DNA from: Planctomycetia bacterium
Lineage (GTDB): Bacteria > Planctomycetota > Planctomycetia > Pirellulales > UBA1268
DNA: 64,000 nt
Assembly (NCBI GenBank): GCA_046074725.1
Contig: JBJTOU010000053.1
Location: 1,751-65,750 of the forward strand
Reading direction: 5' to 3'
The notes below the pieces were generated by a model. The model made no database searches, was not told the DNA's origin, and worked only from the letters and a program-made list of their open reading frames with translations. This document shows, one piece after another, positions 31,064-50,200 of this stretch (its first letter is position 1; the number at the start of each line of letters is the position of its first letter). The position numbers were made by a program, and so were the translations under genes.

Positions 31064-31086
31064 CGATCTCGGCGGCTAGATCGCAT

Positions 31087-31257
31087 CCGGCCTACGTGTA
31101 TGGCCGGCTCGGGGGCGGCAAAAGTCGCCGATGGGCGGTCCTGCGGATTGTCGCGGGGCGAGGATACGCCCAACGCTCCTCGAGCGTTCGCCGACCCCCT
31201 CGCCTACCTTTCTCAGTCAGTTTGTCAGATTGTCGCTAGAGCGATCTGGAGTGCGTT
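31087..31257 (-). repeat. Copy 2 of the ~170-nt dispersed element (sense orientation relative to rpsT)
   Basis: Its reverse complement aligns to 10757-10923 at roughly 90% identity. It ends against the rpsT stop codon (TAG, 31258-31260). Internal hairpins are at 31087-31107 (CCGGCC N9 GGCCGG), 31126-31137 and 31172-31188 (AACGCTC CTC GAGCGTT). Confidence 0.85.
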
Positions 31258-31524: not shown

Positions 31525-31611
31525 TCCAAATCTTTCTGCTGGCTGGGGTTGCAAGGGGCTGGTTCGACAGGAAGATCGCCTGCGGCCGCGAGGCCGGCGG
31601 ACTCCCGACGA

Positions 31612-33048
31612 TCACACCGCCCCTTTATCCTTTCCCGAGGCCAACTTGTCCAGCCGTTGGGCCACGTCCCGGTAGCCGAAGTCGAGCCCGCCGAGCTCCG
31701 AAAGGTATTTCTGGGCCAGGTCGACGTCGCCCGTTGCCATCGACAGGACCCCAGCCCGGTAGAGGGCCCGCTTGCGCAGGTCGATTTCACGGTCGGTCAG
31801 GGTGTCGATGGCGGCCTGGTAGTTCCGTAGCGCCAGCGGGTATTGCTTGATCTTCTGGAAGCACTCGCCCAGTTCCAGTGACACCTGTCCCTTGCGACGG
31901 CTATCCTGGAGCACGTCCTGAAAATGCTTGATGGCCTCAGGCACATTGCCGGCCGCCTTGAGCCGCACCGCCAGCTCGTACCGCCACGTCATATTCTCTG
32001 GATACCGCTGGCACCGGGCCGCGTAGACCTGAATCTCCTGTTGGATCTGCGCCACGCGAAGCTGCTCGAGCGTAGCCCGGTGCGCGGGAGTGTCTTCTGC
32101 CTCGAGATTCTTTTCCGCGACGTGCACCCGGTACCGCCCCCACCGGAGCTGCCGGTCCTCGAGATGCTCACGCACCTTGATGTCGTTGCCCGAAGCCGCC
32201 AACGCCGTGTGCAAAAGTTTTTCCGCTTCCTCGATCGTCGCCTCGGCCTCAAGGATATCGGCGAGCTCGAGATAAGGATCGATCTGGGCGGGGTCGGTGG
32301 CGATGGCTTCCCGCAACTCGGCCAATCGCAACTTCCCTGCGGGCTTCGCCTCTGCTTCCCCCTCATCGACAGCCGAGGTCTTGGAAGCGGGAGCCGCGGC
32401 GGGCCGACCCTCGGTGCCACGCATCCTGGTGGATGTCTTTTCGACCTGAAGTTTCGTGATCTTCCGATCCGCCTCCTCGGCATGCCCCTTGACGGTCTTG
32501 ATCCGCTCCCAGCAGGCAATGGCCTGATCGTATTCGCCACGGGCCTCGAGATACTCGGCACAGACGCGATTCACCTCCGCATCGCCGGGAGCGGCGTCGA
32601 GCGCCGCCCGCAGATACACCCGCTGCGTCTCCTGAAAGTTGAGCTGCTTGCACGCATGAGACATGGCGAGCAGCGTTCCATGATCTCCGGGCGACGATGT
32701 GAGGATTTCGATCCCCTTCTTGAGAACCTCGAGCCATTGCCCTGCGGCGGCCGACTTCTTCAAGCCACCCCTGGCGCCGGCGGAAAACAACACCCCGAGC
32801 CCGCCTGCCTTCTTTCCGGCAAACTTCCTCTTGAGAACGGTGAGCAGCCCCTGAAGGTAGATCGCGTTGGCCGGATCACCGAGAACGCACGCCGTGAACA
32901 TCTCGATCGCGTAGTCCACGTTGGTCGCCGCCTTCTGCTCGCCCGCCAGAAAGCATTTCTGCAGCCGCCTCCGCTCGGACTCCGGAAGAGCCGTCTGGTG
33001 CGACTGCACGACGATCTGACCAGAGGTGGAGGGTGTCGAGTCAGGCAT
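31612..33048 (-). CDS. TPR repeat protein
   Basis: ATG confirmed at 33046-33048 (MPDSTPSTSGQIV). Multiple TPR-like units, for example YLRAALDAAPGDAEVNRVCAEYLEARGEYDQAIACWERI. Confidence 0.75.
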   Translation of the reverse strand: MPDSTPSTSGQIVVQSHQTALPESERRRLQKCFLAGEQKAATNVDYAIEMFTACVLGDPANAIYLQGLLTVLKRKFAGKKAGGLGVLFSAGARGGLKKSAAAGQWLEVLKKGIEILTSSPGDHGTLLAMSHACKQLNFQETQRVYLRAALDAAPGDAEVNRVCAEYLEARGEYDQAIACWERIKTVKGHAEEADRKITKLQVEKTSTRMRGTEGRPAAAPASKTSAVDEGEAEAKPAGKLRLAELREAIATDPAQIDPYLELADILEAEATIEEAEKLLHTALAASGNDIKVREHLEDRQLRWGRYRVHVAEKNLEAEDTPAHRATLEQLRVAQIQQEIQVYAARCQRYPENMTWRYELAVRLKAAGNVPEAIKHFQDVLQDSRRKGQVSLELGECFQKIKQYPLALRNYQAAIDTLTDREIDLRKRALYRAGVLSMATGDVDLAQKYLSELGGLDFGYRDVAQRLDKLASGKDKGAV

Positions 33049-33198
33049 CGTGGACGGACCAATACGCTGCCGCGGCGCACGGGGACGCACACGGGGGCCA
33101 AGGGAACATGAGGAACCAGGATTCTGGCAGTGACCTGCTGCCCCGCCAAGCCCCGGGCCGCCCCACCCATGCCATTTGGCGGTATCATCGGTCCTCGC

Positions 33199-34776
33199 AT
33201 GCAGTCCACGACATCCACGCGCACGTTCGGAAGGGTGATCTTCGTCGGAGCCGGCCCCGGCCATCCCGACCTGATGACGGTCCGTGCGCGGAAGATCCTC
33301 GAAGCGTCCGACGTCGTGGTCCACGACGTACTCGTGCCGAGAGAACTCCTGTCCATGGTGAATCCGTCGGCCGAACTGATCGCCGTGCCACGCGACGTCC
33401 CGGTCGGGAGCGACCCCGGAACCGCGATCGGGACGATGCTGGCCGAACTGGCGGCCTCAGGCCGCACCGTGGTCCGGCTCAAAGGGGGTGATCCGACGGT
33501 CTTCGCCCGCCTCGCCGAAGAACTCCAGCCGTTGCAGCAGGCGGGAATCGCCATCGAGATCGTTCCCGGCGTGACCGCCGTCCTCGCCGCCGCCGCGGCC
33601 GCCGGCATTCCGCTGACCAGTCGCACCACCGCCTCGAGCGCGACGCTGATCACAGGCCACGAGGCCGATGCCAAGGAATCGGCCATCGACTTTAAGGCCC
33701 TCGTCGAACTCACCGGTACGATCGCCGTCTACATGGGCGTGGACCAGGCAGACGCATGGTCCACGGCACTCCTCGATGCCGGCATGCGTCGCGACACCCC
33801 CGTGACGATCGTCAGCCGTTGCTCATGGCCCGATCAGCAGATCGCCGTGACGTCCCTCGAGCGGTGTGCCGCCGATTTCGCCCACCACAAGTGGCGTCCC
33901 CCTGCGGTGGCCATCGTTGGGGGTGTGGCCCATGGGCCGCTGTCCGGACTCGCACGCCATCGACCACTCGAGGGACGGCGGGTCCTCTCGCCGCGGCCAG
34001 CCGGTCAAGGTGAGCCGCTGGGGGCCCTCGTGGCGGAACACGGAGGCTGCTGCATCAACCTGCCCGCCATCCGGATCGAGCCACCGGCGTCGTGGGATCA
34101 GCTCGACGAGTCAATCCGTAGTGCCGACACGTTCGACTGGATCGTTTTCTCGAGCGGCAATGGTGTCAGGGCATTCCTCACGAGACTCCGGGCCCTCGGC
34201 CGAGACGGACGATCCCTCGGAACGGTACGGCTGGCCGCCGTCGGACCGGCCACCGCGCGAGCCCTCGAAGATGGCGGGTATGCCTGCGACCTGGTCCCGG
34301 CCTCGTTCCGCGCCGAAGGACTCGTCGAGGCGTTGGCCGTGGTGGCTGCGGGGGGCCGTTTTCTGCTCGTTCGAGCCGATCAGGGAAGGGACGTTCTTCG
34401 CCACGCCCTCGACGCAGCCGGCCACGACGTCACGGAGGCGGTCGCCTACCGCAGCACGGCGATCGAATCGCTCGATGCCGCCGCGAAGTCGATGCTCGAT
34501 GGCTGCCCGATCGACTGGATCGTCATCACCAGTCCGGCGATCGCCGCGGCCTCAGCCTCGCTCTTCGGCCCGTGGATGAGGGCATGGAACGTCGCGAGCA
34601 TCAGCCCGCTGACATCGGCCGCGCTGGCCCGGGAGGGCTTCCAGCCCACCGTCGAGGCTGCAGAGTCCACGGCCGAGGCGATCGTCGAGGCGATGATCGC
34701 CTGGGAACTTGCCCACGCGGACCAAACGTCACGGAAGGAAGGGTCGTCGCAGGCGACAGGATCGGACACGACCTGA
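33199..34776 (+). CDS. cobA: Bifunctional uroporphyrinogen-III C-methyltransferase / uroporphyrinogen-III synthase (CobA-HemD fusion)
   Basis: The N-terminal half has GRVIFVGAGPGHPDLMTVRA, VRLKGGDPTVFARLAEE and VPGVTAVLAAAAAAGIPLT. The C-terminal half is HemD-like: WIVFSSGNGVRAF, LAAVGPATARALE, WIVITSPAIA. Confidence 0.85.
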   Translation: MQSTTSTRTFGRVIFVGAGPGHPDLMTVRARKILEASDVVVHDVLVPRELLSMVNPSAELIAVPRDVPVGSDPGTAIGTMLAELAASGRTVVRLKGGDPTVFARLAEELQPLQQAGIAIEIVPGVTAVLAAAAAAGIPLTSRTTASSATLITGHEADAKESAIDFKALVELTGTIAVYMGVDQADAWSTALLDAGMRRDTPVTIVSRCSWPDQQIAVTSLERCAADFAHHKWRPPAVAIVGGVAHGPLSGLARHRPLEGRRVLSPRPAGQGEPLGALVAEHGGCCINLPAIRIEPPASWDQLDESIRSADTFDWIVFSSGNGVRAFLTRLRALGRDGRSLGTVRLAAVGPATARALEDGGYACDLVPASFRAEGLVEALAVVAAGGRFLLVRADQGRDVLRHALDAAGHDVTEAVAYRSTAIESLDAAAKSMLDGCPIDWIVITSPAIAAASASLFGPWMRAWNVASISPLTSAALAREGFQPTVEAAESTAEAIVEAMIAWELAHADQTSRKEGSSQATGSDTT

Positions 34777-34923
34777 ACGGTTCTCGGTGACCGTCATGTC
34801 TTTTCCGCCGGTTCATGCGTGGCACCGAAACTGGAGCGGCCGGGCAAGCGGCGTCGATATCCCCGCCGGGCGTCGAGGCCATCAGCGTGGCCGCCGTCCG
34901 GTTTGCAGACGCGGGGAAGACAC

Positions 34924-35655
34924 ATGGCGCGACACTCCACTCCTTCCGTGGCGATCATTCTCTGCCCGATTCCCGACGGCATCACGGCGAGGGAAGTGAC
35001 GGCCTGGCTCAGCCCCGCTGGAACCGACGACGTGCCCGTGACCTGGACCACGACGCTCGAGAAGCTCCCTGCGGTGCGGGATGCAGCCCATGCCTCACTC
35101 CGAGCCTCCACGCCCACGCTCGCACTTGATCTTTCGACGCCGTGGCCGACGACGCGCCAGTCACTCCGGCACACGCTCCGGTCAGCCCGCGCACTCTGGC
35201 CCGGGCTCGATGCCGCGGTGTTTCGTGGTCCGATATCGCTCGAGCACCGCGATGTCCTCGTGCAGGAGGGCATCACCACCGCTGTGGTGGATCGATTCGA
35301 TCCCCAGTCCCGCGGCAGCCGCCGTCCGGCGCCTCGAGGATGGCCATGCCGAAGCGTGGCCTGGGGGCTGTGGGAAGTGTCCCTCGGCCAGGCGGCACGT
35401 CCCCCGCTCCTCACGAGCCTTGTCCGTTGGCGCGGCGGCAGCCGGAAGGGCGGGCTGACCGTCCTGCACGCTGCGCCATCCGGAGATCATCCCTCCGCCA
35501 CCACGATCCGATCCCGCCTGGAGCGGCAGCGTGCCTGGATCCGGCGGCGGTCGCGCGGGGGCTCGGTGCGGCCCGTGCGGCTCTCGGACCTGCCATCGAT
35601 CATCGCCGGGGCGGAGGATGCCACTCTCCGCGGATCGGTGCTCCGTGCCGCCTGA
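34924..35655 (+). CDS. Hypothetical protein
   Basis: ATG 34924 (MARHSTPSVAIILCPIPDGITAREV...). It has the best coding-like frame in this interval. I recognised no family. Confidence 0.5.
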   Translation: MARHSTPSVAIILCPIPDGITAREVTAWLSPAGTDDVPVTWTTTLEKLPAVRDAAHASLRASTPTLALDLSTPWPTTRQSLRHTLRSARALWPGLDAAVFRGPISLEHRDVLVQEGITTAVVDRFDPQSRGSRRPAPRGWPCRSVAWGLWEVSLGQAARPPLLTSLVRWRGGSRKGGLTVLHAAPSGDHPSATTIRSRLERQRAWIRRRSRGGSVRPVRLSDLPSIIAGAEDATLRGSVLRAA

Positions 35656-35686
35656 CGGCTTCGGCACGATGGCCCACCGAGAAAGG

Positions 35687-35911
35687 CTACGCCCCCGTTC
35701 TGTCGATCAGCGACCAACTCAAATAGCCCACGATCAGGCTGCTGACCAGGAAGCCGACATCGGCGGCGATGCTCACCCGGCCGAACGGAAATCCGGCCGC
35801 GAGATCGGCCAGAAAGACGATTCCAACCAAGCCTGCGACGACCATACCGATCAGCGGCAGCAGTTTCGACACGGGCGAATTCCTCGGCTCTGCACACGAA
35901 CGCCGCGGCAT
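35687..35911 (-). CDS. Small hydrophobic membrane protein (74 aa)
   Basis: MPRRSCAEPRNSPVSKLLPLIGMVVAGLVGIVFLADLAAGFPFGRVSIAADVGFLVSSLIVGYLSWSL has two predicted helices. Confidence 0.5.
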   Translation of the reverse strand: MPRRSCAEPRNSPVSKLLPLIGMVVAGLVGIVFLADLAAGFPFGRVSIAADVGFLVSSLIVGYLSWSLIDRTGA

Positions 35912-35997
35912 ACCATAATCGAAGTGGTCGCAGTTCGATATCGCAGCCTTCTCGTCACGCCGTTCCCCGCTGCCACAGCCTGCCGGAGACCCCCATC

Positions 35998-36507
35998 GTG
36001 CCCCCCCTCGGCCCGCCACGAACCGCCGTCTATACGGGCTCCTTCGACCCCGTCACGCTCGGCCACCTCGACGTCATCGAGCGGGCCAGCCGGATCTTCG
36101 ACCGGCTCGTTGTCGGCGTCGGAATCAACCCAGACAAACACTCGATGTTTTCCCTGGACGAGCGGGTGGCCTTGGTGCGGGCCTCGGTGGCCCATCTGAC
36201 CAACGTCACCGTCAAATCCTTCAGCGGCCTGTCGGTGGCCTTCGTGAGAGAGCAGGGATCCAGCGTGCTCCTCCGTGGTGTCCGTTCCCTGACCGACATC
36301 GAGGCGGAGTTCACGATGACGCTCGCCAACCGCAAGCTTGACCCCACGGTCGAGACGGTCTTTCTCATGGCCGACGCGCAGTATTCCCACATCTCCTCGT
36401 CGCTTCTGAAGCAGATCACGCCGCTGGCCGACGACGACGCGCTGCTGCGATTCGTCCCGCGGCCGGTCGTCGCGTCGCTGCGAAGCAAGCTCGCCGGACA
36501 AAACTGA
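35998..36507 (+). CDS. coaD: Phosphopantetheine adenylyltransferase
   Basis: TAVYTGSFDPVTLGHLDVIERAS, then SDIEAEF-type region TDIEAEFTMTLANRKL and ISSSLLKQI. GTG start at 35998. Confidence 0.9.
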   Translation: MPPLGPPRTAVYTGSFDPVTLGHLDVIERASRIFDRLVVGVGINPDKHSMFSLDERVALVRASVAHLTNVTVKSFSGLSVAFVREQGSSVLLRGVRSLTDIEAEFTMTLANRKLDPTVETVFLMADAQYSHISSSLLKQITPLADDDALLRFVPRPVVASLRSKLAGQN

Positions 36508-36740
36508 CACTACAGAATGCAGGTATCGCCGGTGAAGGGCCGCCCACGCACCGTCGCCGGACGTGGGCTACGGCCATCCTGGCCCTCGCTCTCTCGATGC
36601 TGACCGCGCTCCGGCATCCATGCCTGCGCTGGTCAGCAACGCCGGTTCCCGAGGCATGGGCAGCCCTTCACCTCCCGCTCTCAGAGCACCGAGGGCACTT
36701 CCATGAATGGTTTGGGAGGGGTTGCCCGAGCAGGCGTGAG

Positions 36741-37820
36741 CTAATTGTGCTGGGCGAGGCCGCCGGCCTCGCCGCCTTCGAAGTGGCGTCGCAGGTAGCG
36801 GGCCCGCTCGATGTTGCGATCGTTGCTGTCGAGCTCGACCCCGCGGAGCTTCTGCAGGTGGGCCGGCTGGGTGCGAACGAGGAGCGAATTGATGTCGGAG
36901 ATGGTCACATCGCCGATAAGCCCCAGCAGCACCCCCATGCGGACTCGCGAGAGCAGTTGCATCGTCTCCTCGGCACTGATCGTCTGGGCGGTGCGGAGAA
37001 TTCCGTAGGCCCGGCTCACCTGGTCGTGGACGTTCTGCTGGGTTTCACGGACGAGAAACTCGCGGGCGCGCCGCTCGTAGTCGATGAGCACCGGCACGAC
37101 ATCGCCAACCTGCTCGATGAGCTGATCCTCGGTCTTACCGAGCGTGGTCTGGTTCGAGATCTGGTAGAAGTCGCCCATCGCCTGGGATCCCTCACCGTAG
37201 AGCCCCCGAACCGCCAGCGAAATCTTGTGCAGGCTCCGGAACACCTTGTCGATCTGCCGCGTGATGACGAGGGCCGGCAGATGGAGCATCACGCTCACGC
37301 GGATGCCGGTGCCGACGTTCGTCGGGCAGGCGGTGAGGTAGCCCCAGCGGTGGTGGTAGGCGTAGGGGACGACCGTCTCGATCTGCTCATCGACGGCCTT
37401 GATCTGGTCAAAGGCGCCCCGCAGGTCGAGCCCGCTGTGCATGCACTGGATCCTGAGGTGATCCTCCTCGTTGATCATCAGGCTCACCTGCTCGCGGCCG
37501 TCGATGGCCACTCCCCTCGCTCCCTGGGCGTCGGCATGCTCCCGGCTGATGAGCTGGCGCTCGACCAAGAACTGGCGATCGATCTCCTCGAGATGCCCGA
37601 CGTCGATGTACTCGAGGCTGCCCCCCATCGGGGAGGCCGCGATTCGCTCCCGAAGCAGCCGTTCGATCTCGAGACGCTCCTGCTCCGTGGCCCGGCTGAC
37701 GAAGGGAAACTGGGCGAGGTTGCGGGCAAGCCGCACCCGGCTGCTCATCACGATGTCGGACTCCGGCCCGGTACCACGCAGCCACTCACCGACGGACTGG
37801 GCCATTGCATCGATCATCAT
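36741..37820 (-). CDS. mcsB: Protein arginine kinase McsB (ATP:guanido phosphotransferase)
   Basis: VMSSRVRLARNLAQFPF, INEEDHLRIQ, and guanidino-kinase signature GYLTACPTNVGTGIRVSVMLHLPAL. ATG 37820 forms an ATGA overlap with the mcsA stop. Confidence 0.88.
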   Translation of the reverse strand: MMIDAMAQSVGEWLRGTGPESDIVMSSRVRLARNLAQFPFVSRATEQERLEIERLLRERIAASPMGGSLEYIDVGHLEEIDRQFLVERQLISREHADAQGARGVAIDGREQVSLMINEEDHLRIQCMHSGLDLRGAFDQIKAVDEQIETVVPYAYHHRWGYLTACPTNVGTGIRVSVMLHLPALVITRQIDKVFRSLHKISLAVRGLYGEGSQAMGDFYQISNQTTLGKTEDQLIEQVGDVVPVLIDYERRAREFLVRETQQNVHDQVSRAYGILRTAQTISAEETMQLLSRVRMGVLLGLIGDVTISDINSLLVRTQPAHLQKLRGVELDSNDRNIERARYLRRHFEGGEAGGLAQHN

Positions 37821-38386
37821 GGGGTCGTATCCCGTGGGGCGGGCGGAACGGCCGCGGATCCCAGCCAACGCTCCTCGATCGAGCGGATGAGGTCGCGATT
37901 CTCCTTCGCCTTCTCGTAGTCCTCGCTGGCGATCGCATCCTTCATGTCCCGTCGCAGGGCGATGACCCTGGTCAGGTCAGCGGACCCCTCCGGCGGCATC
38001 TCGATGGCGGCCGCCCGCCTCGGCACGCGGCCGATGTGCTCCGTCGCGCCGTGGATGTTGGCGATCAGCGGCTCCAATTCCTTCTCGAAGTGGTCGTAGT
38101 CGTGCGGACAGCCCAGCCGCCCCTGGTTGCGAAACTCGAAGAAGGTGATCCCACACATGTCGCAGGCTTTCTGGTCGAGTGCGGCGAGTTCGTCGGCGGT
38201 CTGGCCGACGCCGAGCGGGCCGGTCAGGGCTCCGCCGGGCTTGCCCTCCGCGGCCTCCGGCCCCCCCTCGGACTGATTGAGATATGACCTCGCATGATCC
38301 TCGCACAGATGAAGTTCGCGGACCGTTCCCGCTTCCAGTTCGGTGATGTGGAAGACCGCCTGGCGGTCACAGTGTTGGCACTTCAT
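37817..38386 (-). CDS. mcsA: McsA-like activator (zinc-finger plus UVR-motif protein)
   Basis: MKCQHCDRQAVFHITE...LHLCEDHA and CDMCGITF...LGCPHDY are Cys clusters. The C-terminal UVR-like motif is ASEDYEKAKENRDLIRSIE. Confidence 0.8.
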   Translation of the reverse strand: MKCQHCDRQAVFHITELEAGTVRELHLCEDHARSYLNQSEGGPEAAEGKPGGALTGPLGVGQTADELAALDQKACDMCGITFFEFRNQGRLGCPHDYDHFEKELEPLIANIHGATEHIGRVPRRAAAIEMPPEGSADLTRVIALRRDMKDAIASEDYEKAKENRDLIRSIEERWLGSAAVPPAPRDTTP

Positions 38387-38496
38387 CTCGCGGCACGCCC
38401 GAAACGTCTCGACTCATCAAACGGCAGGTCGCGCTTCCGCGTCCTCCACGGCCAATCATAGCGGTTCGGGGTCGGGCGGTGGTATCCTCGTTCCCC

Positions 38497-40011
38497 ATGC
38501 CCCACCTCCCCGATTCGCGCCGCTTCGCGGAACTCGCCGGGAACCACCGATTGGTTCCCGTCTACCGTCGCCTGTTCGCCGATGGACTCACCCCCCTCTC
38601 GGCGTTTGCCCGCATCGATGCCGGAGACTGCGGATGCCTGTTCGAGAGCGTTGTCGGAGGCGAGAAGGTGGGGCGGTACAGTTTTCTCGGAGCCGACCCG
38701 TTCCTCCGCCTCGAAGCGAGGGGGACGGCCGTCACGATCATCGGGCCGGACGGTGTCGTGGACACCCTGCAGTCGGAGGATCCGCTAGGCGAGCTCGAGC
38801 GGCGCATGGAGCCCTACAGGCCGGCCCGCCTTCCCGAACTACCGCCGTTCACCAGCGGGGTCGTCGGATACGCCGCGTACGACGCCGTGCGGTACGTCGA
38901 GCGACTGCCCAATCCTCCCCCCGACGATCTCAATCTCCCCGATCTGTCGTTCGCCTTCTATGACCGCCTCGTCGTGTTCGACAACGTCACCAAGTCGCTC
39001 GACGTGGTCGTGCTCGCACACGTGCGCGACACATCGCCCTCCGGCGTCGCCGAGGCCCATGCCGAGGCGGTGAGGCGGATCGACGCGACGATCGAGTCGC
39101 TCTTCCGCCCATCCGACTGGCCGCAGGCGGCCGACATCGGCCCGCGGTCGCTCCCCCCGGGATTTCTCGACGAAACGGCCACGTCGTCGTTTCCACGCGA
39201 GCGTTTCCTCGCCGCGGTCGATCGGGCGATCGACTACATCCGAGCCGGCGACGCCTTCCAGATCGTCTTGAGCCGGCGGTTGGAGGTGCCGTTCGAGGCC
39301 CCGGCCTTGGAGCTCTACCGCACGCTTCGCGTCGTGAACCCGAGCCCGTTCATGTTTTACCTCCGCACGCCCGGGGCGACGCTCGTCGGGAGTTCACCTG
39401 AGATCATGGTGCGGGTCGTCGATGGCAGCGTGACCGTGCGCCCGCTGGCCGGCACGCGGCCGCGTGGGGCGACGCCCGAGGAGGATGCCGCCCTGGCCGA
39501 AAACCTGCTCGCCGATCCGAAGGAACGGGCCGAGCATGTGATGCTCATCGATTTGGGCCGAAACGACATGGGGCGGGTGGCGGCGATCGGTTCGGTCTCC
39601 CTGACCGACGTGATGACGATCGAGCGATACAGCCACGTCATGCACATCACGAGCAACGTCACGGGCCGGCTCGCCCCCGGAATGACCGCGTTCGACGCCC
39701 TTCGGGCATGTTTGCCGGCCGGGACGGTCTCGGGGGCCCCGAAGATCCGCGCGATGGAGATCATCGACGAACTGGAGCCGCGGCGACGGGGTCCCTATGC
39801 CGGTGCGGTGGGCTACATCGACTTCGGCGGAGCCATGGACACCTGCATCGCGCTTCGGACGATCGTGGTCCGGAATGGCAAGGCCTACGTCCAGTCCGGG
39901 GCGGGCATCGTCGCCGACAGCGTTCCTGAGAGCGAGTTCGAGGAAACGCTCAACAAGGCCAAGGGGATGCTCGTGGCCATTGCCATCACGTCCGCCCGCG
40001 TGCGGTCATGA
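38497..40011 (+). CDS. trpE: Anthranilate synthase component I
   Basis: LVPVYRRLFADGLTPLSAF, SPFMFYL, GTRPRG, HVMLIDLGRNDMGRV, GAVGYIDFGGAMDTCIALRT. ATG at 38497. Confidence 0.92.
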   Translation: MPHLPDSRRFAELAGNHRLVPVYRRLFADGLTPLSAFARIDAGDCGCLFESVVGGEKVGRYSFLGADPFLRLEARGTAVTIIGPDGVVDTLQSEDPLGELERRMEPYRPARLPELPPFTSGVVGYAAYDAVRYVERLPNPPPDDLNLPDLSFAFYDRLVVFDNVTKSLDVVVLAHVRDTSPSGVAEAHAEAVRRIDATIESLFRPSDWPQAADIGPRSLPPGFLDETATSSFPRERFLAAVDRAIDYIRAGDAFQIVLSRRLEVPFEAPALELYRTLRVVNPSPFMFYLRTPGATLVGSSPEIMVRVVDGSVTVRPLAGTRPRGATPEEDAALAENLLADPKERAEHVMLIDLGRNDMGRVAAIGSVSLTDVMTIERYSHVMHITSNVTGRLAPGMTAFDALRACLPAGTVSGAPKIRAMEIIDELEPRRRGPYAGAVGYIDFGGAMDTCIALRTIVVRNGKAYVQSGAGIVADSVPESEFEETLNKAKGMLVAIAITSARVRS

Positions 40012-40928
40012 CCGCGATCGAGCACGGAGTCGTCGTCGATCGGGCAACGGTCGTGCGTGGCGCGAGGAGGGTGATCGACGGGCTGTCGCTGCACGTCGCC
40101 CCGGGCCAGGCGATCGCCCTCATCGGCCGGGATGGATCCGGCACATCATCGCTGCTCGCGGCAGTGGCCACGGCGCTTCCGCTGCACTCAGGCGACATCC
40201 GGGTCGATGGCCACTCGGTGCGTTCGTCCCTCGACGCGGTGCGAATGCGAGTCGGGTATGTGCCCTCGGGAATCTCGGCGTGGCCTCACGCCCGGGCCGA
40301 CGAGTTCCTGGAGGTGTTCTCGCTAGAAGCCGGCCTCCGCGGCAAGGCGATGCGCGAGGCGGTGGCCCGGGGCCTGGCACTGGCCGGAATCACCGACCCG
40401 GCGACGGCGGTCGATTCCTTGACGGCGGGACGTGCCGCACGGCTGCTCGTCGCCCGGGCGCTCCTGCACGATCCGCCCGTGCTGGCGACCGACAACCCCT
40501 TTGCCACGCTCGATCCCGCCGGCCGGCGGGACCTCGAACGGCTGATCGAAGACATGCATCTCGGCGGCCGGATCGTCGTCGCCGCCATCGACGACGCGAT
40601 CGTGCCGAGTTGCTTCACGCATGTTGCGGTTCTCGATGCGGGCCGCCTGACCGCGCACGGACCGATGACGCCCTCGGCCTTCCATCGCGACCGCGGGTGG
40701 CGGCACCGGATCGTCTGCCCCGCCTCCGCGGGCGACGCGGCCGCCCTGCTTCGTCGCCTGGCCGTCGATGCCCGTGCGATCGACGACGACACGGTCGAGT
40801 ATCGCCATGATCCCGCCATGCATGCCGGTGGCGATCTTCTCACCGCGATCATGCGTGCGGGGATCACCGTCGAATCGGCCGGCTTCCACCCGCCGTGGAC
40901 CGCCCAACTGGTCGATGACGGGCCGTGA
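40008..40928 (+). CDS. ABC-transporter ATPase homolog (DrrA/NatA-like fold plus C-terminal DUF4162-like region) with degenerate catalytic motifs
   Basis: Walker A position is GRDGSGTSS (no Lys). Q-loop is VGYVPSG (no Gln). Signature is LTAGRAARL. Walker B is VLATDNP (D-N instead of D-E). H-loop position is AAIDDA. The start has an ATGA overlap with the trpE stop. Confidence 0.75.
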   Translation: MTAIEHGVVVDRATVVRGARRVIDGLSLHVAPGQAIALIGRDGSGTSSLLAAVATALPLHSGDIRVDGHSVRSSLDAVRMRVGYVPSGISAWPHARADEFLEVFSLEAGLRGKAMREAVARGLALAGITDPATAVDSLTAGRAARLLVARALLHDPPVLATDNPFATLDPAGRRDLERLIEDMHLGGRIVVAAIDDAIVPSCFTHVAVLDAGRLTAHGPMTPSAFHRDRGWRHRIVCPASAGDAAALLRRLAVDARAIDDDTVEYRHDPAMHAGGDLLTAIMRAGITVESAGFHPPWTAQLVDDGP

Positions 40929-40949
40929 GCCCGGCGGAATTACAAACAG

Positions 40950-41786
40950 CTAACCCGCAATGGCCTCGATGAGGCTTCGGACGTGGGCTTCTATGCCCGA
41001 AACGACTCGGTCGCGTGGCGACGAGCCCGCGGCGTCGAGATGCCTGACGAGCGCCGAGCCGACGATCACGCCATCGGCTGCTGTGGCCACCGCCGCGGCC
41101 TGCTCGGGGGTCGCGATGCCGAATCCGACGAGAATCGGCACGTCGGTCTTCGTCCGCAGCCATCGCACGCGATCGACGAGCCCCTGTGGCAGTGCGGTCC
41201 GGGCTCCGGTCACCCCGGCGACGGAGACGCAATAGAGAAAGCCGGTCGATTGCCTGGCGATCTTCTCGGCGCGGTCGGGGGGAGTCGTCGGGGTCACGAG
41301 GCGGACGAGGGCGAGGCCGGCCTCGCGGCAGCCGCGGTCGAGATCGTCCGACTCCTCGATCGGAAGGTCGGGCACGACAAGCCCGGCCAGGCCGGCTGCG
41401 AGCGACTCGTTCACGAACCGACCGATGCCCCGACGGAAGATGATCGAATAGCTCGCCATGGCCAGGATCGGCGTCGCGACCTTGGCCGACGCCTCCCGCA
41501 CGGTCGCGAAGAGACGGTCGAGGCACATGCCTCCGGCCAAGGCCCGCACGTAGGACGCCTGGATCACGGCGCCATCGGCGATCGGGTCGCTGTAGGGAAC
41601 CCCAAGCTCGATCAGCGTTGCCCCGGCGCGGTCGATGGCGGCGAGAATCTCGCCCGTTGTCTCGGCATCGGGATCCCCCGCCGTGATGAACGGGGCCACC
41701 GCCCCACGACCAGCGGCGGCGTTGGCGGCGAACCGTGCGGCGATGCGGGCGACGCCACTGGCGGGATTGGAGGACGCGGCGTTCAT
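40950..41786 (-). CDS. trpA: Tryptophan synthase alpha chain
   Basis: [46 protein letters not shown] overlap with the trpB stop. Confidence 0.92.
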
Positions 41787-43021
41787 GAGGCGGGCTGCTC
41801 ACCGCTTGGGAGGCCACGGAGACGGGCGATCTCGGCGGCATCCTTGTCGCCACGTCCGGACAGACAGACGACGAGAAGTTCGTCGGATGGGCGACGGGCA
41901 GCCTCGCGGATCGCCCAGGCCAGCGCATGCGATGTCTCGAGCGCCGGAAGGACGCCCTCCCGCTTTGCCACGGTATCGAACGCCTCGAGCGCCTCGGCAT
42001 CGGTGACGCTCGTGTACTCGACGCGGCCGGCATCCCGCCAATAACTATGCTCGGGGCCGACACCCGGGTAGTCGAGGCCGGCCGACACGGAATGCACGTC
42101 GCACGTCTGGCCGTCCTCGTTTTGGAGGACGTAACTCAGGCTGCCATGGAGGATCCCAGGGCTGCCGTAGCTGAGGCTGGCCGCATGGTCACCAGGCTTG
42201 CCCGAACGCCCGCCGGCCTCGACCCCGACCAGCCGCACGGAGCGATGGTCGATGAACGGGAAAAACATCCCGGCGGCGTTACTCCCGCCGCCGACGCACG
42301 CGACGACGGTGTCGGGCAACCGACCGAATTGTCGGTGGCACTGATCGAGAGTCTCGCGGCCGATCACCGATTGGAAGTCTCGCACGATCCGAGGAAAGGG
42401 ATGCGGGCCGACGACTGAGCCGATGATGTAATGGGTCGTTTCCACCGACCCCATCCAGTCGCGCATCGCCTCGTTGATGGCGTCACGGAGCGTGCGCGAT
42501 CCCGTCTCGACAGGCCGCACCTCGGCCCCCATGAACCGCATGTTCCGAACGTTCGGGGCCTGACGGCGGACGTCCTCCGCCCCCATGTAGACGACGCACT
42601 CCAGGCCGAACCTTGCGCACGCCGTGGCGGTCGCCACGCCGTGCTGCCCGGCGCCCGTTTCGGCGATGATCCGTCGCTTGCCCATCCGCATCGCCAAAAG
42701 AGCCTGACCAAGCGTGTTGTTGATCTTGTGGGCACCGGTGTGGCTGAGATCCTCCCGCTTGAAGTAGATCCTCGCGCCACCGGCGATCTCGGTGAGCCGC
42801 TTGGCGAAGAGCAGGGGAGTGGGCCGGCCGACGAAGGCGGAGAGGAGGCCATTGAGTTCCTCGGCAAACGCCGGGTCGGCAACAGCTTCGGCATAGGCCC
42901 GCTCGAGTTGATCGAGGGCAGCCGACAGCGTCTCGGGCACGTAGCGGCCACCGAATCGGCCGAACCGGCCGAGAGCATCGGGCACGACGGTAAGCTTGTC
43001 GGCGGTCGACATGACGGGCAT
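41783..43021 (-). CDS. trpB: Tryptophan synthase beta chain
   Basis: [49 protein letters not shown]. Candidate ATGs are at 43021 and 43012. Confidence 0.93.
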
Positions 43022-43203
43022 CGTACGCGAGATTGTATCCCCGTGCCGCCCGACCGCCATCCAGCACCGGCTTCCTGGCGTGCTTTGGGCCTACCCGAGC
43101 CATTCGCCCATTTTCAGGCGATTTCGGGAGCAGCACGCGGCAGGTTGTGCGACGAGTCTCTACCATGAACGCTTGGAGATTCCTTCCCGTCGGAGGTTTG
43201 CCG

Positions 43204-44257: not shown

Positions 44258-45418
44258 ATGCTCGACTGCTGCATCATCGGAGGAGGCATCATCGGGTTGT
44301 CGATAGCCCGAGAGCTGGCCGGCCGTGGACATTCCGTCCGCGTTCTCGCCCGGGAACGCGAGCGGGATACGGCATCGTGGGCGGGGGCCGGGATCCTGCC
44401 GCCGACACCGCGGCATGCCGCGGAAACATCCGGAGAAATCCTCACAGCGTGGAGCGATTTGCTTCATCGACAGTGGTCCCGCGAACTGTTCGAAGAGACC
44501 GGCATCGACAACGGACTGGCAACGTGCGGCGGACTCCATGTCGCCGGCGATGCATCGCGACTGCGATCGCTCGCTTCGACCGCCAAGGCATGGCGGCGTC
44601 GCGGTGCCCGATGCCTCGAACTCGATGCCACGGGCGTGGCCGAACTCGAGCCGGGGCTGCGGGGAGCCGTCGATCGCGGGACGGTCGTCGGCGGCATCTT
44701 CCTTCCGGATGAGACCCAGATCCGGCCGCCACGACACCTGGAAGCCCTGGTTCGCTCGTGCAACAGCCGGGGTGTCGAGATCGTGTTCGGTGCGACCGCG
44801 GAGTCGATCATCCTCGGTGAGGACCGGATCGAGGGCATCGCGATCTCGCGGGAAGGGGGCGGCCGGGACACCGTCCACGCCGACGCCTACTGCCTCGCGG
44901 CCGGCGCATGGTCGGGCGCACTGGCCGAGCCACTCGGGCTCCGATTCGAGACCAGGCCGATCCGAGGGCAGATCGCACTGTTCCGCTTCCCGGCCCCCGC
45001 GCTCATGCGAGTCGTCAACAGCGGGCTCGACTACCTGCTTCCCCGCAGCGACGGACGCCTCCTCGTCGGCTCGACCCTGGAAGACGTCGGTTTCGACCGC
45101 AGCACGACGGCGGAGGCGATCGACCGGCTCCGCGGCATCGCGACGGCGCTGCTCGGAGACCTGTCTGCCGTGACGCTCGAACAGGCCTGGGCAGGCTTGC
45201 GTCCTGGAAGCATCGACGGGCTCCCGACCATCGGGCGAACGCCGAATTTCCGCAACGGCTATGTCGCCACGGGCCACTTTCGGGCGGGGCTTCATCAATC
45301 GACGGGCACGGCCGCGCTGATCGCCGACATGATCACCGGGGCCACTCCCACGATCGATCCGGAGCCCTTCGCACCAGACCGTCCGCGAAGACTCCTCGAG
45401 AGCCTCATGCCGCGGTGA
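44258..45418 (+). CDS. FAD-dependent oxidoreductase, glycine oxidase (ThiO)-like
   Basis: MLDCCIIGGGIIGLSIARELAGRGHSVRVL is an FAD dinucleotide fold. The overall layout is DAO-family and the length is 386 aa. Confidence 0.75.
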   Translation: MLDCCIIGGGIIGLSIARELAGRGHSVRVLARERERDTASWAGAGILPPTPRHAAETSGEILTAWSDLLHRQWSRELFEETGIDNGLATCGGLHVAGDASRLRSLASTAKAWRRRGARCLELDATGVAELEPGLRGAVDRGTVVGGIFLPDETQIRPPRHLEALVRSCNSRGVEIVFGATAESIILGEDRIEGIAISREGGGRDTVHADAYCLAAGAWSGALAEPLGLRFETRPIRGQIALFRFPAPALMRVVNSGLDYLLPRSDGRLLVGSTLEDVGFDRSTTAEAIDRLRGIATALLGDLSAVTLEQAWAGLRPGSIDGLPTIGRTPNFRNGYVATGHFRAGLHQSTGTAALIADMITGATPTIDPEPFAPDRPRRLLESLMPR

Positions 45419-46079
45419 CGGCGAGCCTTCGGTGGACGAGTTCGATGTCATCGGGCGAGAGCGGCCTCTCGGGACGAATCCCGCCGACCACGCTCGCCAG
45501 TTCCGCCAGCCGCGTCACGGCGGCTGGGATGCCCCCGGTGACCTCGTGAATGGTATCTGACACCGACTCCGCCGCGGCCTGATCGGCCGGCAACGATGCC
45601 CCTGTGATCGACACCACGAGCCGCCGCGTCTCCGCCCTCGAAAACGGGGTGAGGATGGCGCGCAACTGAACGAGTCGTTCCAGGCGAGGCTCCCGGGCGA
45701 TCAGCGTGAGCAGCCGACCGCTGCCGGCGAGGACGATGCTCGCTTCCTTGCGGGCTTCCCACCAATGAGCCACCCGTGCCGCCAGCCGCTCATCACCGAT
45801 GCGGTCGGCATCGTCGATGAGCAACACGTCGAGTGGTCCGTCCGGCTGTGACTCGCCTCCGTCGAGGGCGGAGATCACGCGGGACGTTCGACCAGCCGCT
45901 TCGGAGGCACGGGCCACCGCGTCCAGGACGCTCGTCGTGCCGGTACCCGTCGGCCCGCAGAGCACGGCCAGGGCGCCGGGTCGCTCCGTGACGTAGAGCA
46001 GTTTGGCAACGGCGGCGCACTGAACATCGGAAAGGTCGGTCGTGCGGACCTGGCGGAGGGCGGTGGTGCGAATGGTCAT
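45405..46079 (-). CDS. ExeA-like AAA ATPase homolog with a Lys-less Walker A
   Basis: LAVLCGPTGTGTTSVLDAV has T at the Walker A Lys position. Walker B is DVLLIDDADRI. LAGSGRLLTLIAREPRLERLVQLRAILTPFSRAETRRLV matches the ExeA-type pattern. ATG 46079 forms an ATGA overlap with the upstream stop. Confidence 0.7.
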   Translation of the reverse strand: MTIRTTALRQVRTTDLSDVQCAAVAKLLYVTERPGALAVLCGPTGTGTTSVLDAVARASEAAGRTSRVISALDGGESQPDGPLDVLLIDDADRIGDERLAARVAHWWEARKEASIVLAGSGRLLTLIAREPRLERLVQLRAILTPFSRAETRRLVVSITGASLPADQAAAESVSDTIHEVTGGIPAAVTRLAELASVVGGIRPERPLSPDDIELVHRRLAVTAA

Positions 46080-46744
46080 GCGAGCGTCTCCACTGGACAC
46101 ATCGTCTCCACTTCCCCCACCAGCACGAGGCCGGCGTGCTCGATGGCGGCAGCCCGTGCAGGACTGGGAGACATCGATGCCTGCCTCACGAGAATGACCG
46201 CGTCACACCCTCGGCTCAACGCCTCCACCCGTTCATGACGGATTGGCCCCGGGGGAAACCAGACACCGCCATCGACGATCACCAGCTGTCGCGGATCGCC
46301 ACCATCCGGGGGCGTGGTTCCGAGATGCCCAGCCGTGCCGGTCACGCAGGAGACCTGCCACCCCCGGGCCTCGAGCGTGGCGACGAGCCCCTCAACAACG
46401 GTCGTTCGCCCCTCGCCACGCCTTCCACCGGCAACCGCGATCACGCGGCAGCCGACCGTAGCAGCTCGCTCCACACCGATGGCGAGGGACTCCCATTGAT
46501 CGGGAACTGCCGCCAGAAGCCACTCGCCGAGGGAGCGCTCATCCAGGGAGCGCTCATCCAGGGAGCGCTCTTCCAGCAGGGAACGCTCTTCAACGGGCAC
46601 TGAGGCTTCGGTCGGGGGCGGGTCCGGCGGCGGTGACGAAGCCACAGACGGGGGCTCGTGCCCCGCACGAAGACGGCCCAGAAACGCGGCATCGACCGCG
46701 TCCAAGGCGACGGCACGTCTCTCTGTGACAGCGGACACGCTCAT
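46076..46744 (-). CDS. BY-kinase/ParA-MinD-like P-loop protein with Walker A Lys replaced by Arg and an (ERSLD)n linker
   Basis: RVIAVAGGRRGEGRTTVVEGLVATLEARG, QLVIVDGG, DAVILVRQ. The N-terminal part is Pro-rich plus EERSLLEERSLDERSLDERSL. It has ATGA overlaps at both ends. Confidence 0.7.
   Translation of the reverse strand: MSVSAVTERRAVALDAVDAAFLGRLRAGHEPPSVASSPPPDPPPTEASVPVEERSLLEERSLDERSLDERSLGEWLLAAVPDQWESLAIGVERAATVGCRVIAVAGGRRGEGRTTVVEGLVATLEARGWQVSCVTGTAGHLGTTPPDGGDPRQLVIVDGGVWFPPGPIRHERVEALSRGCDAVILVRQASMSPSPARAAAIEHAGLVLVGEVETMCPVETLA
46531..46593. repeat. In-frame 15-bp tandem repeat (about 4 units) inside the P-loop protein gene
   Basis: GGGAGCGCTCATCCA occurs twice (46531-46560), then GGGAGCGCTCTTCCA, then a degenerate unit with a 3-nt insertion. 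It encodes ERSLD repeats on the minus strand. Confidence 0.85.
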
Positions 46745-47076
46745 TGGGCCGTCCTTGCGCCGGCATCGCGCGACGAAACGGGTTCCTGGGCAATCCTGGT
46801 CGTCCGCAAACCATGACTCGCGACGGCAGACTGTCCTGCTTGGTCGCCGATCCAACGAACGCCGTCCCTGTGGATTGCCAGCGCCCACACCCCGATGGCG
46901 ATCACGGCAAGCACCACGACCGAGCCCATCCGGAACGGGGATGTCGCCGGCCTTGCGGCAACAACCCGACGCGGCGGGGCGGGGGCCGCAGCGGCCTCAC
47001 GAACGTCCGTGCCACGGGCGGGCGATGGACGGGCCGGAAAACGAGCAATCACTTGCACGACAGACTCCTTCCCCAT
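46741..47076 (-). CDS. Small single-pass membrane protein, first gene of the three-gene operon
   Basis: MGKESVVQVIARFPARPSP...FRMGSVVVLAVIAIGVWALAIHRDG has one TM helix. An alternative GTG at 47058 is preceded by AAGGAG. The stop overlaps the next start (ATGA). Confidence 0.5.
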   Translation of the reverse strand: MGKESVVQVIARFPARPSPARGTDVREAAAAPAPPRRVVAARPATSPFRMGSVVVLAVIAIGVWALAIHRDGVRWIGDQAGQSAVASHGLRTTRIAQEPVSSRDAGARTAQ

Positions 47077-47249: not shown

Positions 47250-50200
47250 ATGCCGAGCCCGAACTCCCCATCCCGCTCCGATCTTCTCCACACTCTCCTC
47301 TCCACACGCATCGCGGTCCTCGACGGGGCCATGGGGACGATGGTCCACGCCCTCGGGCTGGATGAACAGGGATTCCGCGGCGATCGCTTCCGCGACCATC
47401 CCAAGGACCTGAAAAACTGCATCGACGTTCTCGTGCTCACACAGGGAGACGCGATTCGTGGCATTCACGCGGCCTATCTCGAGGCCGGCGCCGATATCGT
47501 CGAGACCAACACATTTGGTGCGACGAGCGTGGCACTGGCCGACTTCGGCCTCGCCGATCGGACCCGGGAACTCAATCTCGCCGCGGTCAAGCTTGCCCGT
47601 GAGGCGGCCGACGCATGCTCGGCCAAAAATCCCGATCGGCCCCGGTTCGTGGCCGGTTCGATCGGGCCGACCAACAAGCAGCTGTCGATCGCCGGCAACG
47701 TGGCCGATCCGGGTCACCGCGACGTGACGTTCGACCAGATGGTGGCCTGCTATCGGGAGCAGGTCGAGGCCCTCCTCGAAGGAGGCGTCGATCTGATCCT
47801 CGCCGAGACGGCCTTCGACACGCTCGTCCTCAAAAGCTGCCTCTACGCGATCGAGCAGGTCTTTCTCGACACGGGGCTTCGTGTTCCGGTGATGGCCTCG
47901 TTCACCGTGTTCGAGGGTGGGCGGACGCTCTCCGCCCAAACCGTGGAAGCATGCTGGCAGAGCATCTCCCACGCCGACCTTCTGAGCGTGGGCATCAATT
48001 GCGCCCTCGGGCCCGAGAAGCTCCGCACGCACCTGGCCGACCTCGCCCGGATCACACCGCGGCTGGTGAGCTGCTACCCCAACGCCGGCATGCCCAACGC
48101 CCTCGGCGGATTCGACGAGACGCCGGAGATGATGGCCCGCGTGCTCGGCGAGTTCGCCCGCGAGGGCTGGCTGAACATCGTCGGCGGATGCTGTGGCACG
48201 ACCCCCGCCCACATCAAGGCGATCGCAGAGGCAGTCGCCCTGCATCCGCCACGGAAGCCCGCCTCCCCTCCGAGGCGATCGCGGTACTCGGGCCTCGAGC
48301 TGCTTGAAATCCGTCCGGAGACGAGCTTCACCATCATCGGCGAACGGACGAATGTCACCGGCTCGCGGGCGTTCGCCCGCCTCATCAAGGAGGAACGCTA
48401 CGAGGAGGCCGTCAGCGTCGCCCGGCAGCAGGTGGAGAACGGGGCGAACATCATCGACGTCAACGTCGATGAGGGCATGCTCGACGGGCCGGCCGTGATG
48501 ACCAAGTTCCTCACGCTCCTCTCGAGCGAGCCCGATGTCTCGCGGGTGCCGGTGATGGTCGACAGCTCCCGCTGGGAGGTGCTCGAGGCTGGGCTCAAGT
48601 GCCTGCAGGGGAAGGGGATCGTCAACTCGATCAGCCTCAAGGAGGGGGAGAATATCTTCCTCCGGCAGGCCCGCACCATCCGCAGATACGGAGCCGCGGT
48701 CGTGGTCATGGCCTTCGACGAGGAGGGGCAGGCCACCGACATCGACCGCCGTGTGGCGATCTGCGGGCGGGCCTACAGGCTGCTCACCGAGCAGGCGGGC
48801 TTCCCGGCAGAGGACATCATTTTCGATCCCAACATCCTCACCGTGGCCACGGGAATGGAGGAGCACAATCGCTACGCGATGAACTTCATCGAGGCCACGC
48901 GGCAGATCAAGGAGGAGATGCCCCTGGTCAAGGTGTCGGGGGGCGTGAGCAACATCTCGTTCTCGTTCCGTGGTAACGACGTGGTTCGCGAGGCGATGCA
49001 CTCGGCTTTCCTCTACCATGCCATCAAGGCGGGCATGGACATGGGCATCGTCAACGCCGGGCAGTTGGCGGTCTACGAGGAGATCGAGCCGGAGCTCCTG
49101 GATCGGATCGAAGACGTGCTGTTCGACCGCCGTCCCGACGCGACCGACCGGCTGATCGAGTTCGCGGAAACGGTAAAGCATCGCGACGCCGGGGATGCCA
49201 CGAAGGCCGACACCTGGCGGGATCTCGACGTCGAGGGGCGGTTGACTCATGCCTTGATCAAGGGGCTCGTGGACCACGTCGAGGACGACATCGACGAGGC
49301 CCGCACGAAGTACGCCACCAGCCTCGAGATCATCGAGGGACCGCTGATGCGGGGAATGCAGACGGTCGGCGATCTCTTCGGTGAAGGAAAGATGTTCCTC
49401 CCACAGGTGGTGAAGAGCGCCCGTGTGATGAAGCGGGCGGTCAACCATCTCCTCCCCTTCATGGAAGCCGAACGGAAGGCGACCGGCGCCGGGGACACGA
49501 AGCGCGGCCGCGTGCTCATGGCTACGGTGAAGGGAGACGTGCACGACATCGGGAAGAACATCGTCGGCGTGGTGCTCGGCTGCAACGGATACGAGGTGAT
49601 CGACCTCGGCGTGATGGTGCCCTGCGCCACGATCATCTCGGAAACACGCGCCCGGCAGGCCGACATCGTCGGCCTCAGCGGGCTGATCACGCCGAGCCTC
49701 GACGAAATGGTGCAGGTGGCCCGGGAATTCGAGCATGAGAGCCTGGGAGTGCCCCTCCTGATCGGCGGTGCAACGACGTCGGCCAGGCACACGGCCGTGA
49801 AGATCGCCCCGCATTACTCGGGCGACGTGGTCCACGTCGTCGATGCCTCTCGGGCGGCGGGAGTGGTCGAGAAACTGCTCAACCCGGCCCTGAAAACGGG
49901 GTTCGTGGCCGGCAATCGTGAAGCGCAGCGACGGGATGTCGAGAACTTCAAGCGACGCCAGGAAACCGTGCTTGTTCCCTACGAGACGGCATGCGCACGG
50001 CGGTGGACCTGCGACTGGGCGACCGCCAGGATCGATCGGCCGGAATGGCTCGGTGTCCGACGGCTCGACGCCGTGCCACTGGCCGACCTGATTCCATGGA
50101 TCGACTGGTCGCCCTTCTTCCTTTCGTGGGAGTTGAAGGGCAAGTACCCGGCGATCTTCGACGACCCCGTCGTCGGCACCGAAGCCCGCAGGCTGTATGA

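Follow-up and report, generated by a model that had tools for sequence, protein, structure and literature searches.

Soluble ATP-binding cassette (ABC) proteins such as ABCF/EttA, ABCE1, SufC and UvrA are catalytically competent, having either tandem nucleotide-binding domains (NBDs; ABCF, ABCE1 and UvrA) or defined partners (SufB/D). The pseudoenzymes known to derive from ABC ATPases are for the most part inactive halves of asymmetric transporters. Replacement of the Walker B glutamate by aspartate together with deviation of the H-loop is a known hallmark of ABC sites that bind ATP and hydrolyse it very slowly, with the Q-loop acting as a known element coupling the NBD to the transmembrane domain (PMC7756269). 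The presence of non-trp genes inserted in trp operons has also been documented, such genes being speculated to aid catalysis or complex formation (PMC2395257). The present analysis concerns a stretch of 64,000 nucleotides (nt) from a Planctomycetia bacterium (contig JBJTOU010000053.1, positions 1,751 to 65,750; hereafter the window) in which trpE, encoding anthranilate synthase component I, is followed by a gene for a degenerate homologue of ABC-2-type exporter ATPases. This open reading frame (ORF; 40008-40928, plus strand) was confirmed in the window and encodes 306 amino acids (aa), its product being given the label ABCx in this analysis. ABCx is kept with trpE across a whole clade of abundant freshwater planctomycetes, and as a free-standing, permease-less ABC-2 NBD predicted to be degenerate family-wide it is a clean candidate for a non-transport job.

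Catalytic motifs of ABCx and its family

The register of the motifs was fixed by two independent alignments, one of ABCx to the NBDs of ABCA4 and ABCA1 (phmmer) and the other of the family profile to a canonical ABC-2 ATPase (hhalign). In the Walker A motif or P-loop (40125-40151, plus strand, as for all motifs that follow) the canonical GHNGAGKTT is replaced by GRDGSGTSS with Lys46 changed to Thr, while in the Q-loop region GYVPSG (40254-40271) the Gln is replaced by Ser87, PSG standing for the canonical PQH. The signature (40419-40433) reads LTAGR in place of LSGGQ, or of LSGGM in the aligned reference. Walker B (VLATDNP, 40479-40499) keeps its Asp and carries Asn for the catalytic Glu (TDNP vs. 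the canonical LDEP), and the switch or H-loop region VVAAIDDA (40575-40598) is without the His of the canonical STHH. These five losses had been called in the initial annotation, and their register was upheld by both alignments. A further loss, absent from that list, lies at the A-loop position (40056-40058), where Arg17 stands opposite the Tyr of the canonical ABC-2 ATPase in the hhalign alignment in place of the adenine-stacking aromatic residue.

Family residue counts were taken from an alignment of 121 sequences. At the position of the catalytic Glu no member carries Glu (0/121), the residues found being Asp (105), Ala (9), Gly (3), Asn (2) and Thr (2). Likewise, the Q-loop Gln is present in 0/121 members, with Ala, Asp, Ser, Thr or Gly at this position, and the family signature follows the consensus L[PSA]AG[QHR]. 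The switch His is lost family-wide with AAIDDA being among the most conserved stretches of the family, and at the A-loop position Arg is found in 97/121 members with none of the other residues listed being aromatic. Lys persists in Walker A of 116/121 members (Thr in three, Arg in two) and Asp in Walker B of 120/121, the remaining one having Glu. Thr for the Walker A Lys (GRDGSGT) is confined to the window copy, its 93%-identical relative P0001 and P0062. As such the statement in the initial annotation that every catalytic motif is altered holds for the window copy and does not extend to the family, of which the window copy is an outlier and an extreme member, having lost the Walker A Lys too. 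With the Walker A Lys and the Walker B Asp so widely retained, the family is probably non-hydrolysing yet ligand-binding. The most conserved stretches of the family are those lining the former nucleotide pocket, together with the C-terminal helix. W297 and Q300 of the R domain are invariant; the invariant residues are retained in members that are only about 30% identical.

A protein search returned 221 relatives of about 300 aa, ranging from 93% to approximately 46% identical and all derived from metagenomes or metagenome-assembled genomes (MAGs). These are labelled Planctomycetota, Planctomycetia or Pirellulales and annotated only as generic ABC or ABC-2 ATPases. When 1.84 billion cluster representatives were searched with the profile, only about a dozen clusters of the family (50% identity) came ahead of generic multi-NBD ABC proteins, and a second such search gave a sharp score gap, no family member scoring under 291 bits and no other protein over 187. 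The family is thus seen only in uncultured Planctomycetota, mostly in MAGs of the Pirellulales. In the literature searched, on trpE, on degenerate or pseudo-ABC ATPases and on the R domains of NosF, no published description of this family or of a trpE-coupled ABC pseudo-ATPase was found.

ABCx is a live gene under purifying selection. The ratio of nonsynonymous to synonymous substitution rates (dN/dS; Nei-Gojobori, 11 pairs) was 0.13-0.28 for ABCx and 0.06-0.14 for trpE, and the ABCx reading frame is intact in about 60 species-level MAGs. For the window copy and its closest relative, L065, dN/dS was 0.165, both of these ABCx copies being already without the Walker A Lys. With the motif losses shared across the family and purifying selection acting on the gene, ABCx is best described from its sequence as a predicted pseudo-ATPase in which the catalytic Glu, the switch His, the signature, the Q-loop Gln and the A-loop aromatic have all been lost, in agreement with what the initial annotation had proposed.

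Fold and ancestry

The assignment of an ABC nucleotide-binding fold in the initial annotation was borne out by a match to Pfam PF00005 (ABC_tran; E = 3.8e-19, 70.1 bits against a cut-off of 25, residues 24-166) and by an AlphaFold2 model built on a 26-sequence family alignment, with a predicted local distance difference test score (pLDDT) of 93.3 and a predicted TM-score (pTM) of 0.89. In this model the NBD, with its RecA-like core and helical subdomain, precedes a beta-alpha-beta-beta-alpha-beta domain that occupies residues 231-302. Foldseek placed NosF of NosDFY (TM-score 0.80-0.82 over 303 columns) first among the full-length PDB matches, with further full-length matches to the NBD and R-domain modules of ABCA1/4/7 and to TM_1403; in all, 1258 structural matches to ABC NBDs in the PDB were recorded for the ABCx model at E <= 0.001. 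The C-terminal R domain (40668-40925, plus strand), delimited by AlphaFold2 secondary structure, hhalign and Foldseek, ends in the family motif GFHPPWTAQL. No direct Pfam match to PF13732 (DUF4162) was obtained in ABCx. Alignment of the family profile to a PF13732-carrying ABC-2 ATPase gave a probability of 99.9 over 283 columns including the C-terminal domain (hhalign), GFHPPWTAQL lying opposite the C-terminal fsfqPPtlselF of that protein, and together with the NosF and ABCA matches this sustains the earlier description of a DrrA/NatA-type C-terminal region.

The top NCBIfam matches of ABCx were to NodI (81.5 bits vs. a cut-off of 521), CcmA (75.4 vs. 132), DrrA (73.6 vs. 312) and GldA (73.5 vs. 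403), all far under their equivalog cut-offs. ABCx therefore descends from an exporter ATPase of the DrrA/NatA/NosF type (ABC-2) and passes as no named functional family. Two conserved positions, Cys202 and His154, fall on structural residues that canonical ABC-2 ATPases also have (lCed and LvHDP, respectively). The candidacy of ABCx as the ATPase of a defence system was considered and dropped, PADLOC giving only weak, partial and generic ABC-like matches (mad3, E = 1.7e-09 over 65 residues, and mad8).

The family's nearest canonical relative is P0123 (L074, 6001-9311), a protein of 804 aa with three tandem NBDs of which the first two are degenerate and the third is canonical. The next gene, overlapping that of P0123 by 4 nt, encodes an ABC2_membrane_2 permease. 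It is possible that P0123 provides a model for how the degenerate NBDs of this lineage arise. From its length P0123 had been suspected to be a Rosetta-stone fusion of TrpE and ABCx, a suggestion that was rejected as this triple-NBD protein beside an ABC-2 permease has no chorismate-binding domain.

Association with trpE

In the window trpE (38479-40011, plus strand) is the first gene of a two-gene unit with ABCx. Its product scored 553.6 bits against TIGR00564 (cut-off 517.7) and matched Pfam Anth_synt_I_N and Chorismate_bind, with mycobacterial TrpE as the closest solved structures. The trpE stop and the ABCx start overlap in an ATGA (40008-40011, plus strand), as read directly from the sequence (ATG 40008-40010, TGA 40009-40011) and as had been reported in the initial annotation. 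The position taken by ABCx is, as was also remarked there, the one usually held by trpG; the likeness ends with the position, ABCx being without an amidotransferase domain.

The neighbourhood was surveyed with one genome per GTDB species, which returned 60 planctomycete MAG loci. A lack of conservation of the trpE adjacency had been named beforehand in the initial annotation as refuting; the adjacency was found in all 58 of the relatives' loci with enough upstream DNA, trpE lying directly upstream on the same strand (tblastn). The adjacency extends to the divergent P0126 (41% identity) and P0142 (30% identity, on a contig of 50% GC), in both of which TrpE is 70-75% identical, while in the case of P0130 (36% identity) the contig is too short to show the upstream gene. 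Wherever the upstream DNA of a family member could be read, the gene was next to trpE. Spacing between the two genes was determined with heuristic start-codon calls for 54 locus entries, including the window and a 100%-identical duplicate contig (L001), and was -4 nt in 17/54, 20 nt or less in 41/54 and greater than 150 nt in 6/54. The downstream side of ABCx has been rearranged repeatedly, with the trpE junction unbroken in every locus examined.

The MAG contigs L002, L003, L004, L012, L020, L022, L038, L040 and L052, which are labelled 'Candidatus Kuenenia' or 'Chitinophagaceae', form a separate observation. TrpE identity to the window is 77-84% for the contigs so labelled, within the 74-87% of Pirellulales-labelled MAGs, and the taxonomic labels of these bins look unreliable.

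Genes flanking the trpE-ABCx unit

Downstream of ABCx in the window lie trpA (40950-41786, minus strand; Pfam Trp_syntA) and trpB (41783-43060, minus strand; Pfam PALP), converging on it as stated in the initial annotation, with the stop codons of ABCx and trpA 21 nt apart. This arrangement is not conserved, trpA-trpB lying from about 20 nt to about 5 kb away from ABCx in relatives with genes for a Na/H exchanger, an Rrf2 regulator, PEP-CTERM proteins and an oxidoreductase among the insertions. The L065 locus is 94% identical to and collinear with positions 29958-40937 of the window, the synteny ending 9 nt past the ABCx stop and giving way to unrelated genes, such that trpA-trpB is missing from it.

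Upstream and divergent from trpE are mcsB, of the protein arginine kinase type (36741-37868, minus strand; Pfam ATP-gua_Ptrans), and an mcsA-like gene with a UVR motif (37817-38386, minus strand; Pfam UVR), both of which are divergent from trpE in all relatives examined. A plus-strand ORF of 440 aa across mcsB (36597-37919) was dismissed as an antisense artefact, having no Pfam match where the minus-strand ORF matches ATP-gua_Ptrans. The intergenic region between mcsA and trpE (38387-38478) is, from the positions of the genes, the presumed promoter region of the trpE-ABCx unit, the promoter being inferred only. Scans for sigma-70 promoters and terminators were uninformative, with no sigma-70-like match in this region, and no Rfam match to a leader, riboswitch or T-box was found upstream of trpE, the sole Rfam match in the window being a tRNA elsewhere.

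About 50 ORFs spread over the entire 64 kb of the window were scanned with Pfam, and neither an ABC-2 membrane protein nor trpG, trpD, trpC or trpF was among them. No ABC-2 permease was seen in the relatives' flanks examined either, and the earlier remark that no permease gene is adjacent to ABCx thus stands.

Two further features were observed on the downstream side of ABCx. A convergent gene encoding about 168 aa with no Pfam match lies directly downstream of ABCx in 44 of the relatives' loci, often within 10-30 nt (for example L011 6905-7411, L067 2297-2836 and L073 1277-1783, all on the minus strand). At 51% identity even in the deep-branching L067 it surpasses ABCx in conservation. The gene does not occur anywhere in the 64-kb window or in L065, nor in at least eight further loci that would have space for it. 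The second feature is an intergenic repeat, about 175-180 nt long and ending in short inverted repeats, present in the window at 31075-31255 (plus strand) and 10754-10923 (minus strand) in copies that are 91% identical, with further copies at L065 10942-11118 and L019 2446-2578. L065 is without the repeat at the rpsT site and has a copy right after the ABCx stop, where its synteny with the window ends. The dispersed repeat, which has no Rfam match and a folding z-score of about -2.2 on either strand, looks like a miniature inverted-repeat transposable element or a recombinogenic sequence.

Possible functions of ABCx

The explanation tentatively preferred here, which is better called possible than probable and which rests on gene order within one clade, is that ABCx serves not in transport but as an accessory protein co-produced with TrpE, whether to regulate, to scaffold or to sense a ligand. 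On this explanation ABCx would be a soluble protein, derived from the ATPase subunit of an ABC-2 exporter, that no longer energises transport. It forms an operon-like unit with trpE, in which the ATGA overlap makes translational coupling probable, and its part would be to regulate or scaffold anthranilate synthase or to sense a ligand in connection with tryptophan synthesis. Most family members could still bind a nucleotide or phosphate ligand, slowly or without hydrolysing it, through the P-loop Lys and Walker B Asp that they keep. Because the Walker A Lys is gone from the window lineage, the function of ABCx there would have to be one that does not depend on canonical ATP binding. A more specific proposal is that anthranilate synthase component I has gained this ABC-fold pseudoenzyme as a subunit, stoichiometric and translationally coupled, that tunes entry into tryptophan synthesis by sensing a ligand in its crippled pocket (e.g., one that reports adenylate or phosphate status) or by offering its surface as a scaffold; in this form the proposal is unlikely.

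A number of observations weigh against a functional tie between ABCx and TrpE. The whole coaD-mcsB-mcsA-trpE-ABCx block, the first gene of which is coaD-like, is syntenic across the clade with the mcsA-trpE junction as conserved as the trpE-ABCx junction, and because the upstream block is equally syntenic the trpE-ABCx adjacency is weaker evidence than it looks; part of it is inheritance within one lineage. In a few loci 180-450 nt separate the two genes. ABCx also evolves several-fold faster than TrpE (30-93% vs. 70-98% identity), a pace that would be unusual in an obligate subunit. The window TrpE retains LFES..S and NPSPFMF, and as these motifs form the tryptophan feedback site in enterobacterial TrpE, the enzyme does not obviously need an external sensor. 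The R domain of ABCx as the missing tryptophan sensor, a candidate role that was entertained, is weakened on the same ground. In addition, the negative findings for a permease cover the 64-kb window and flanks on MAG contigs, and a permease or a canonical NBD partner may be encoded elsewhere in the genome.

This last point bears on a different and somewhat unlikely explanation, in which ABCx is an orphan degenerate NBD that serves as a regulatory, non-catalytic subunit of an ABC-2 transporter whose genes lie elsewhere, docking on it either by itself or next to a canonical NBD, its co-transcription with trpE reflecting co-regulation (e.g., export of tryptophan, anthranilate or indole) or being incidental. 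The sequence and fold of ABCx are clearly those of a transporter-type ABC-2 NBD with an R domain, sites degenerate through a change of Glu to Asp are common in working transporters (PMC7756269), and P0123, by joining two degenerate NBDs to a canonical NBD and an ABC-2 permease, indicates that degenerate modules of this type can work inside transporters; the gene content seen is moreover that of the window and of contigs, not of whole genomes. However, in known asymmetric transporters each NBD still gives canonical elements to a single active site, whereas ABCx would cripple both composite sites since its own Walker B, H-loop and Q-loop and its signature are all degenerate. The Q-loop Gln that contacts the membrane domain is lost in 121/121 members, and no permease was seen in the flanks examined at any locus or in the 64-kb window. 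It is distinctly unlikely that ABCx is a hitch-hiker with a role unrelated to either transport or tryptophan, descending from an ancestral insertion into the trpE unit that was never disrupted in this lineage. It is well known that trp operons can contain non-trp genes, whose presence often has no explanation (PMC2395257), and the synteny of the whole upstream block, the confinement of the family to one planctomycete lineage and the fast evolution of ABCx relative to TrpE would all fit such an origin. Against it stand the tight or overlapping spacing kept in most loci, the trpE junction left unbroken in all loci examined despite the many rearrangements on the 3' side, and the failure to find any member with readable upstream DNA away from trpE.

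That the window copy has lost every catalytic motif, even the Walker A Lys, and that the cognate permease is missing would be in keeping with ABCx being the decaying, functionless relic of a former transporter ATPase. This is very improbable and, because of the selection and conservation data, effectively refuted: the frame is intact in some 60 species-level MAGs, dN/dS stays at 0.13-0.28 and is 0.165 even in the Lys-less lineage, residues remain invariant down to 30% identity and the AlphaFold2 fold is confident (pLDDT 93). Almost no weight can be given to the suggestion that ABCx functionally replaces TrpG, the glutamine amidotransferase (GATase) subunit. The argument for it is positional only, in that ABCx starts within the stop of the trpE before it, an arrangement often seen for trpG, with no trpG in the 64-kb window; trpG or pabA is often encoded elsewhere in the genome. 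The fold of ABCx is that of an ABC NBD with PF00005 the only domain matched and no GATase domain or fold, and Cys202 and His154 are ancestral structural residues of ABC-2 ATPases, not part of a new Cys-His-Glu triad. A trpE without an adjacent trpG is moreover common in metagenomes (PMC2395257).

Should ABCx bind or regulate TrpE, as the preferred explanation allows, it would represent a new type of accessory subunit for one of the best-studied biosynthetic enzymes, and a case of a transporter ATPase module repurposed as the regulator of a metabolic enzyme. All family members carry the public labels 'ABC-2 type transport system ATP-binding protein' or 'multidrug transport ATPase'. As statements of function these transporter labels are almost certainly wrong, and they inflate the transporter counts in these MAGs.

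Other features of the window

Four large ORFs with a coding-like GC content at third codon positions (GC3) have no Pfam match, namely 55138-58602 (minus strand, 1154 aa), 1718-3709 (minus strand, 663 aa), 58827-60296 (plus strand, 489 aa) and 4158-5378 (plus strand, 406 aa). The codon-position profile of the 489-aa ORF is unusual, with a GC content of 0.82 at first positions (GC1) and a GC3 of 0.70. A gene for a tyrosine recombinase of the XerC/D type (50915-51988, plus strand) overlaps the 3' end of metH (47250-50948) by 34 nt and is followed by a local dip in GC content to 0.62 at 52-54 kb, spanning an exbB-exbD-exbD cluster. The tRNA gene at 11790-11863 (minus strand, 70.2 bits) overlaps the annotated start of an SDR-family ORF (10939-11823), the true start of which must as a result be further downstream. 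Downstream of a DAO-family oxidoreductase gene are two overlapping small genes (45405-46888, minus strand) encoding 231 aa, with weak matches to AAA_22, AAA_30 and nSTAND, and 270 aa, without matches; neither matches PADLOC, and a similar pair occupies the same place in the 451-kb contig of a relative.

Comparison with known systems

In its two-domain architecture and fold ABCx is the same as the NosF, DrrA and NatA ATPases of ABC-2 (type V) exporters and as the combined NBD and R-domain modules of ABCA1/4/7. Unlike NosF, DrrA and NatA it lacks the A-loop aromatic, the Q-loop Gln, the signature, the catalytic Glu and the switch His. It is also without the adjacent ABC-2 permease gene, whereas the gene of its canonical relative P0123 overlaps that of a permease.

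In its probable mode of working ABCx comes closest to the degenerate NBDs of asymmetric ABC transporters. Most family members share the degenerate-site pattern of such transporters, for example TM287/288, TAP1/2, the ABCC family, NBD1 of CFTR and ABCG5/G8 (PMC7756269), with a Walker B Glu changed to Asp and a deviating H-loop and signature, with Walker A kept. In those transporters, however, the other site is canonical and each NBD is fused to a membrane domain or encoded beside one, whereas ABCx is free-standing, degenerate both in its own elements and in the signature that it would lend, deprived of the Q-loop Gln and without a membrane partner nearby. From this comparison of motifs and gene order ABCx would not qualify as the degenerate NBD of an asymmetric transporter, the signature being degenerate too and no membrane domain being fused or adjacent.

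Like ABCx, the soluble ABC proteins (ABCF/EttA, ABCE1, SufC and UvrA) have no membrane domain and some of them have regulatory or sensing roles. No NCBIfam model of ABCF/EttA, ABCE1, SufC or UvrA was among the 25 best matches listed for ABCx, which differs from them as a single, catalytically degenerate NBD of the ABC-2 transporter lineage. The genes inserted in trp operons resemble ABCx in another respect, each being a gene of unclear role inside a trp transcription unit.

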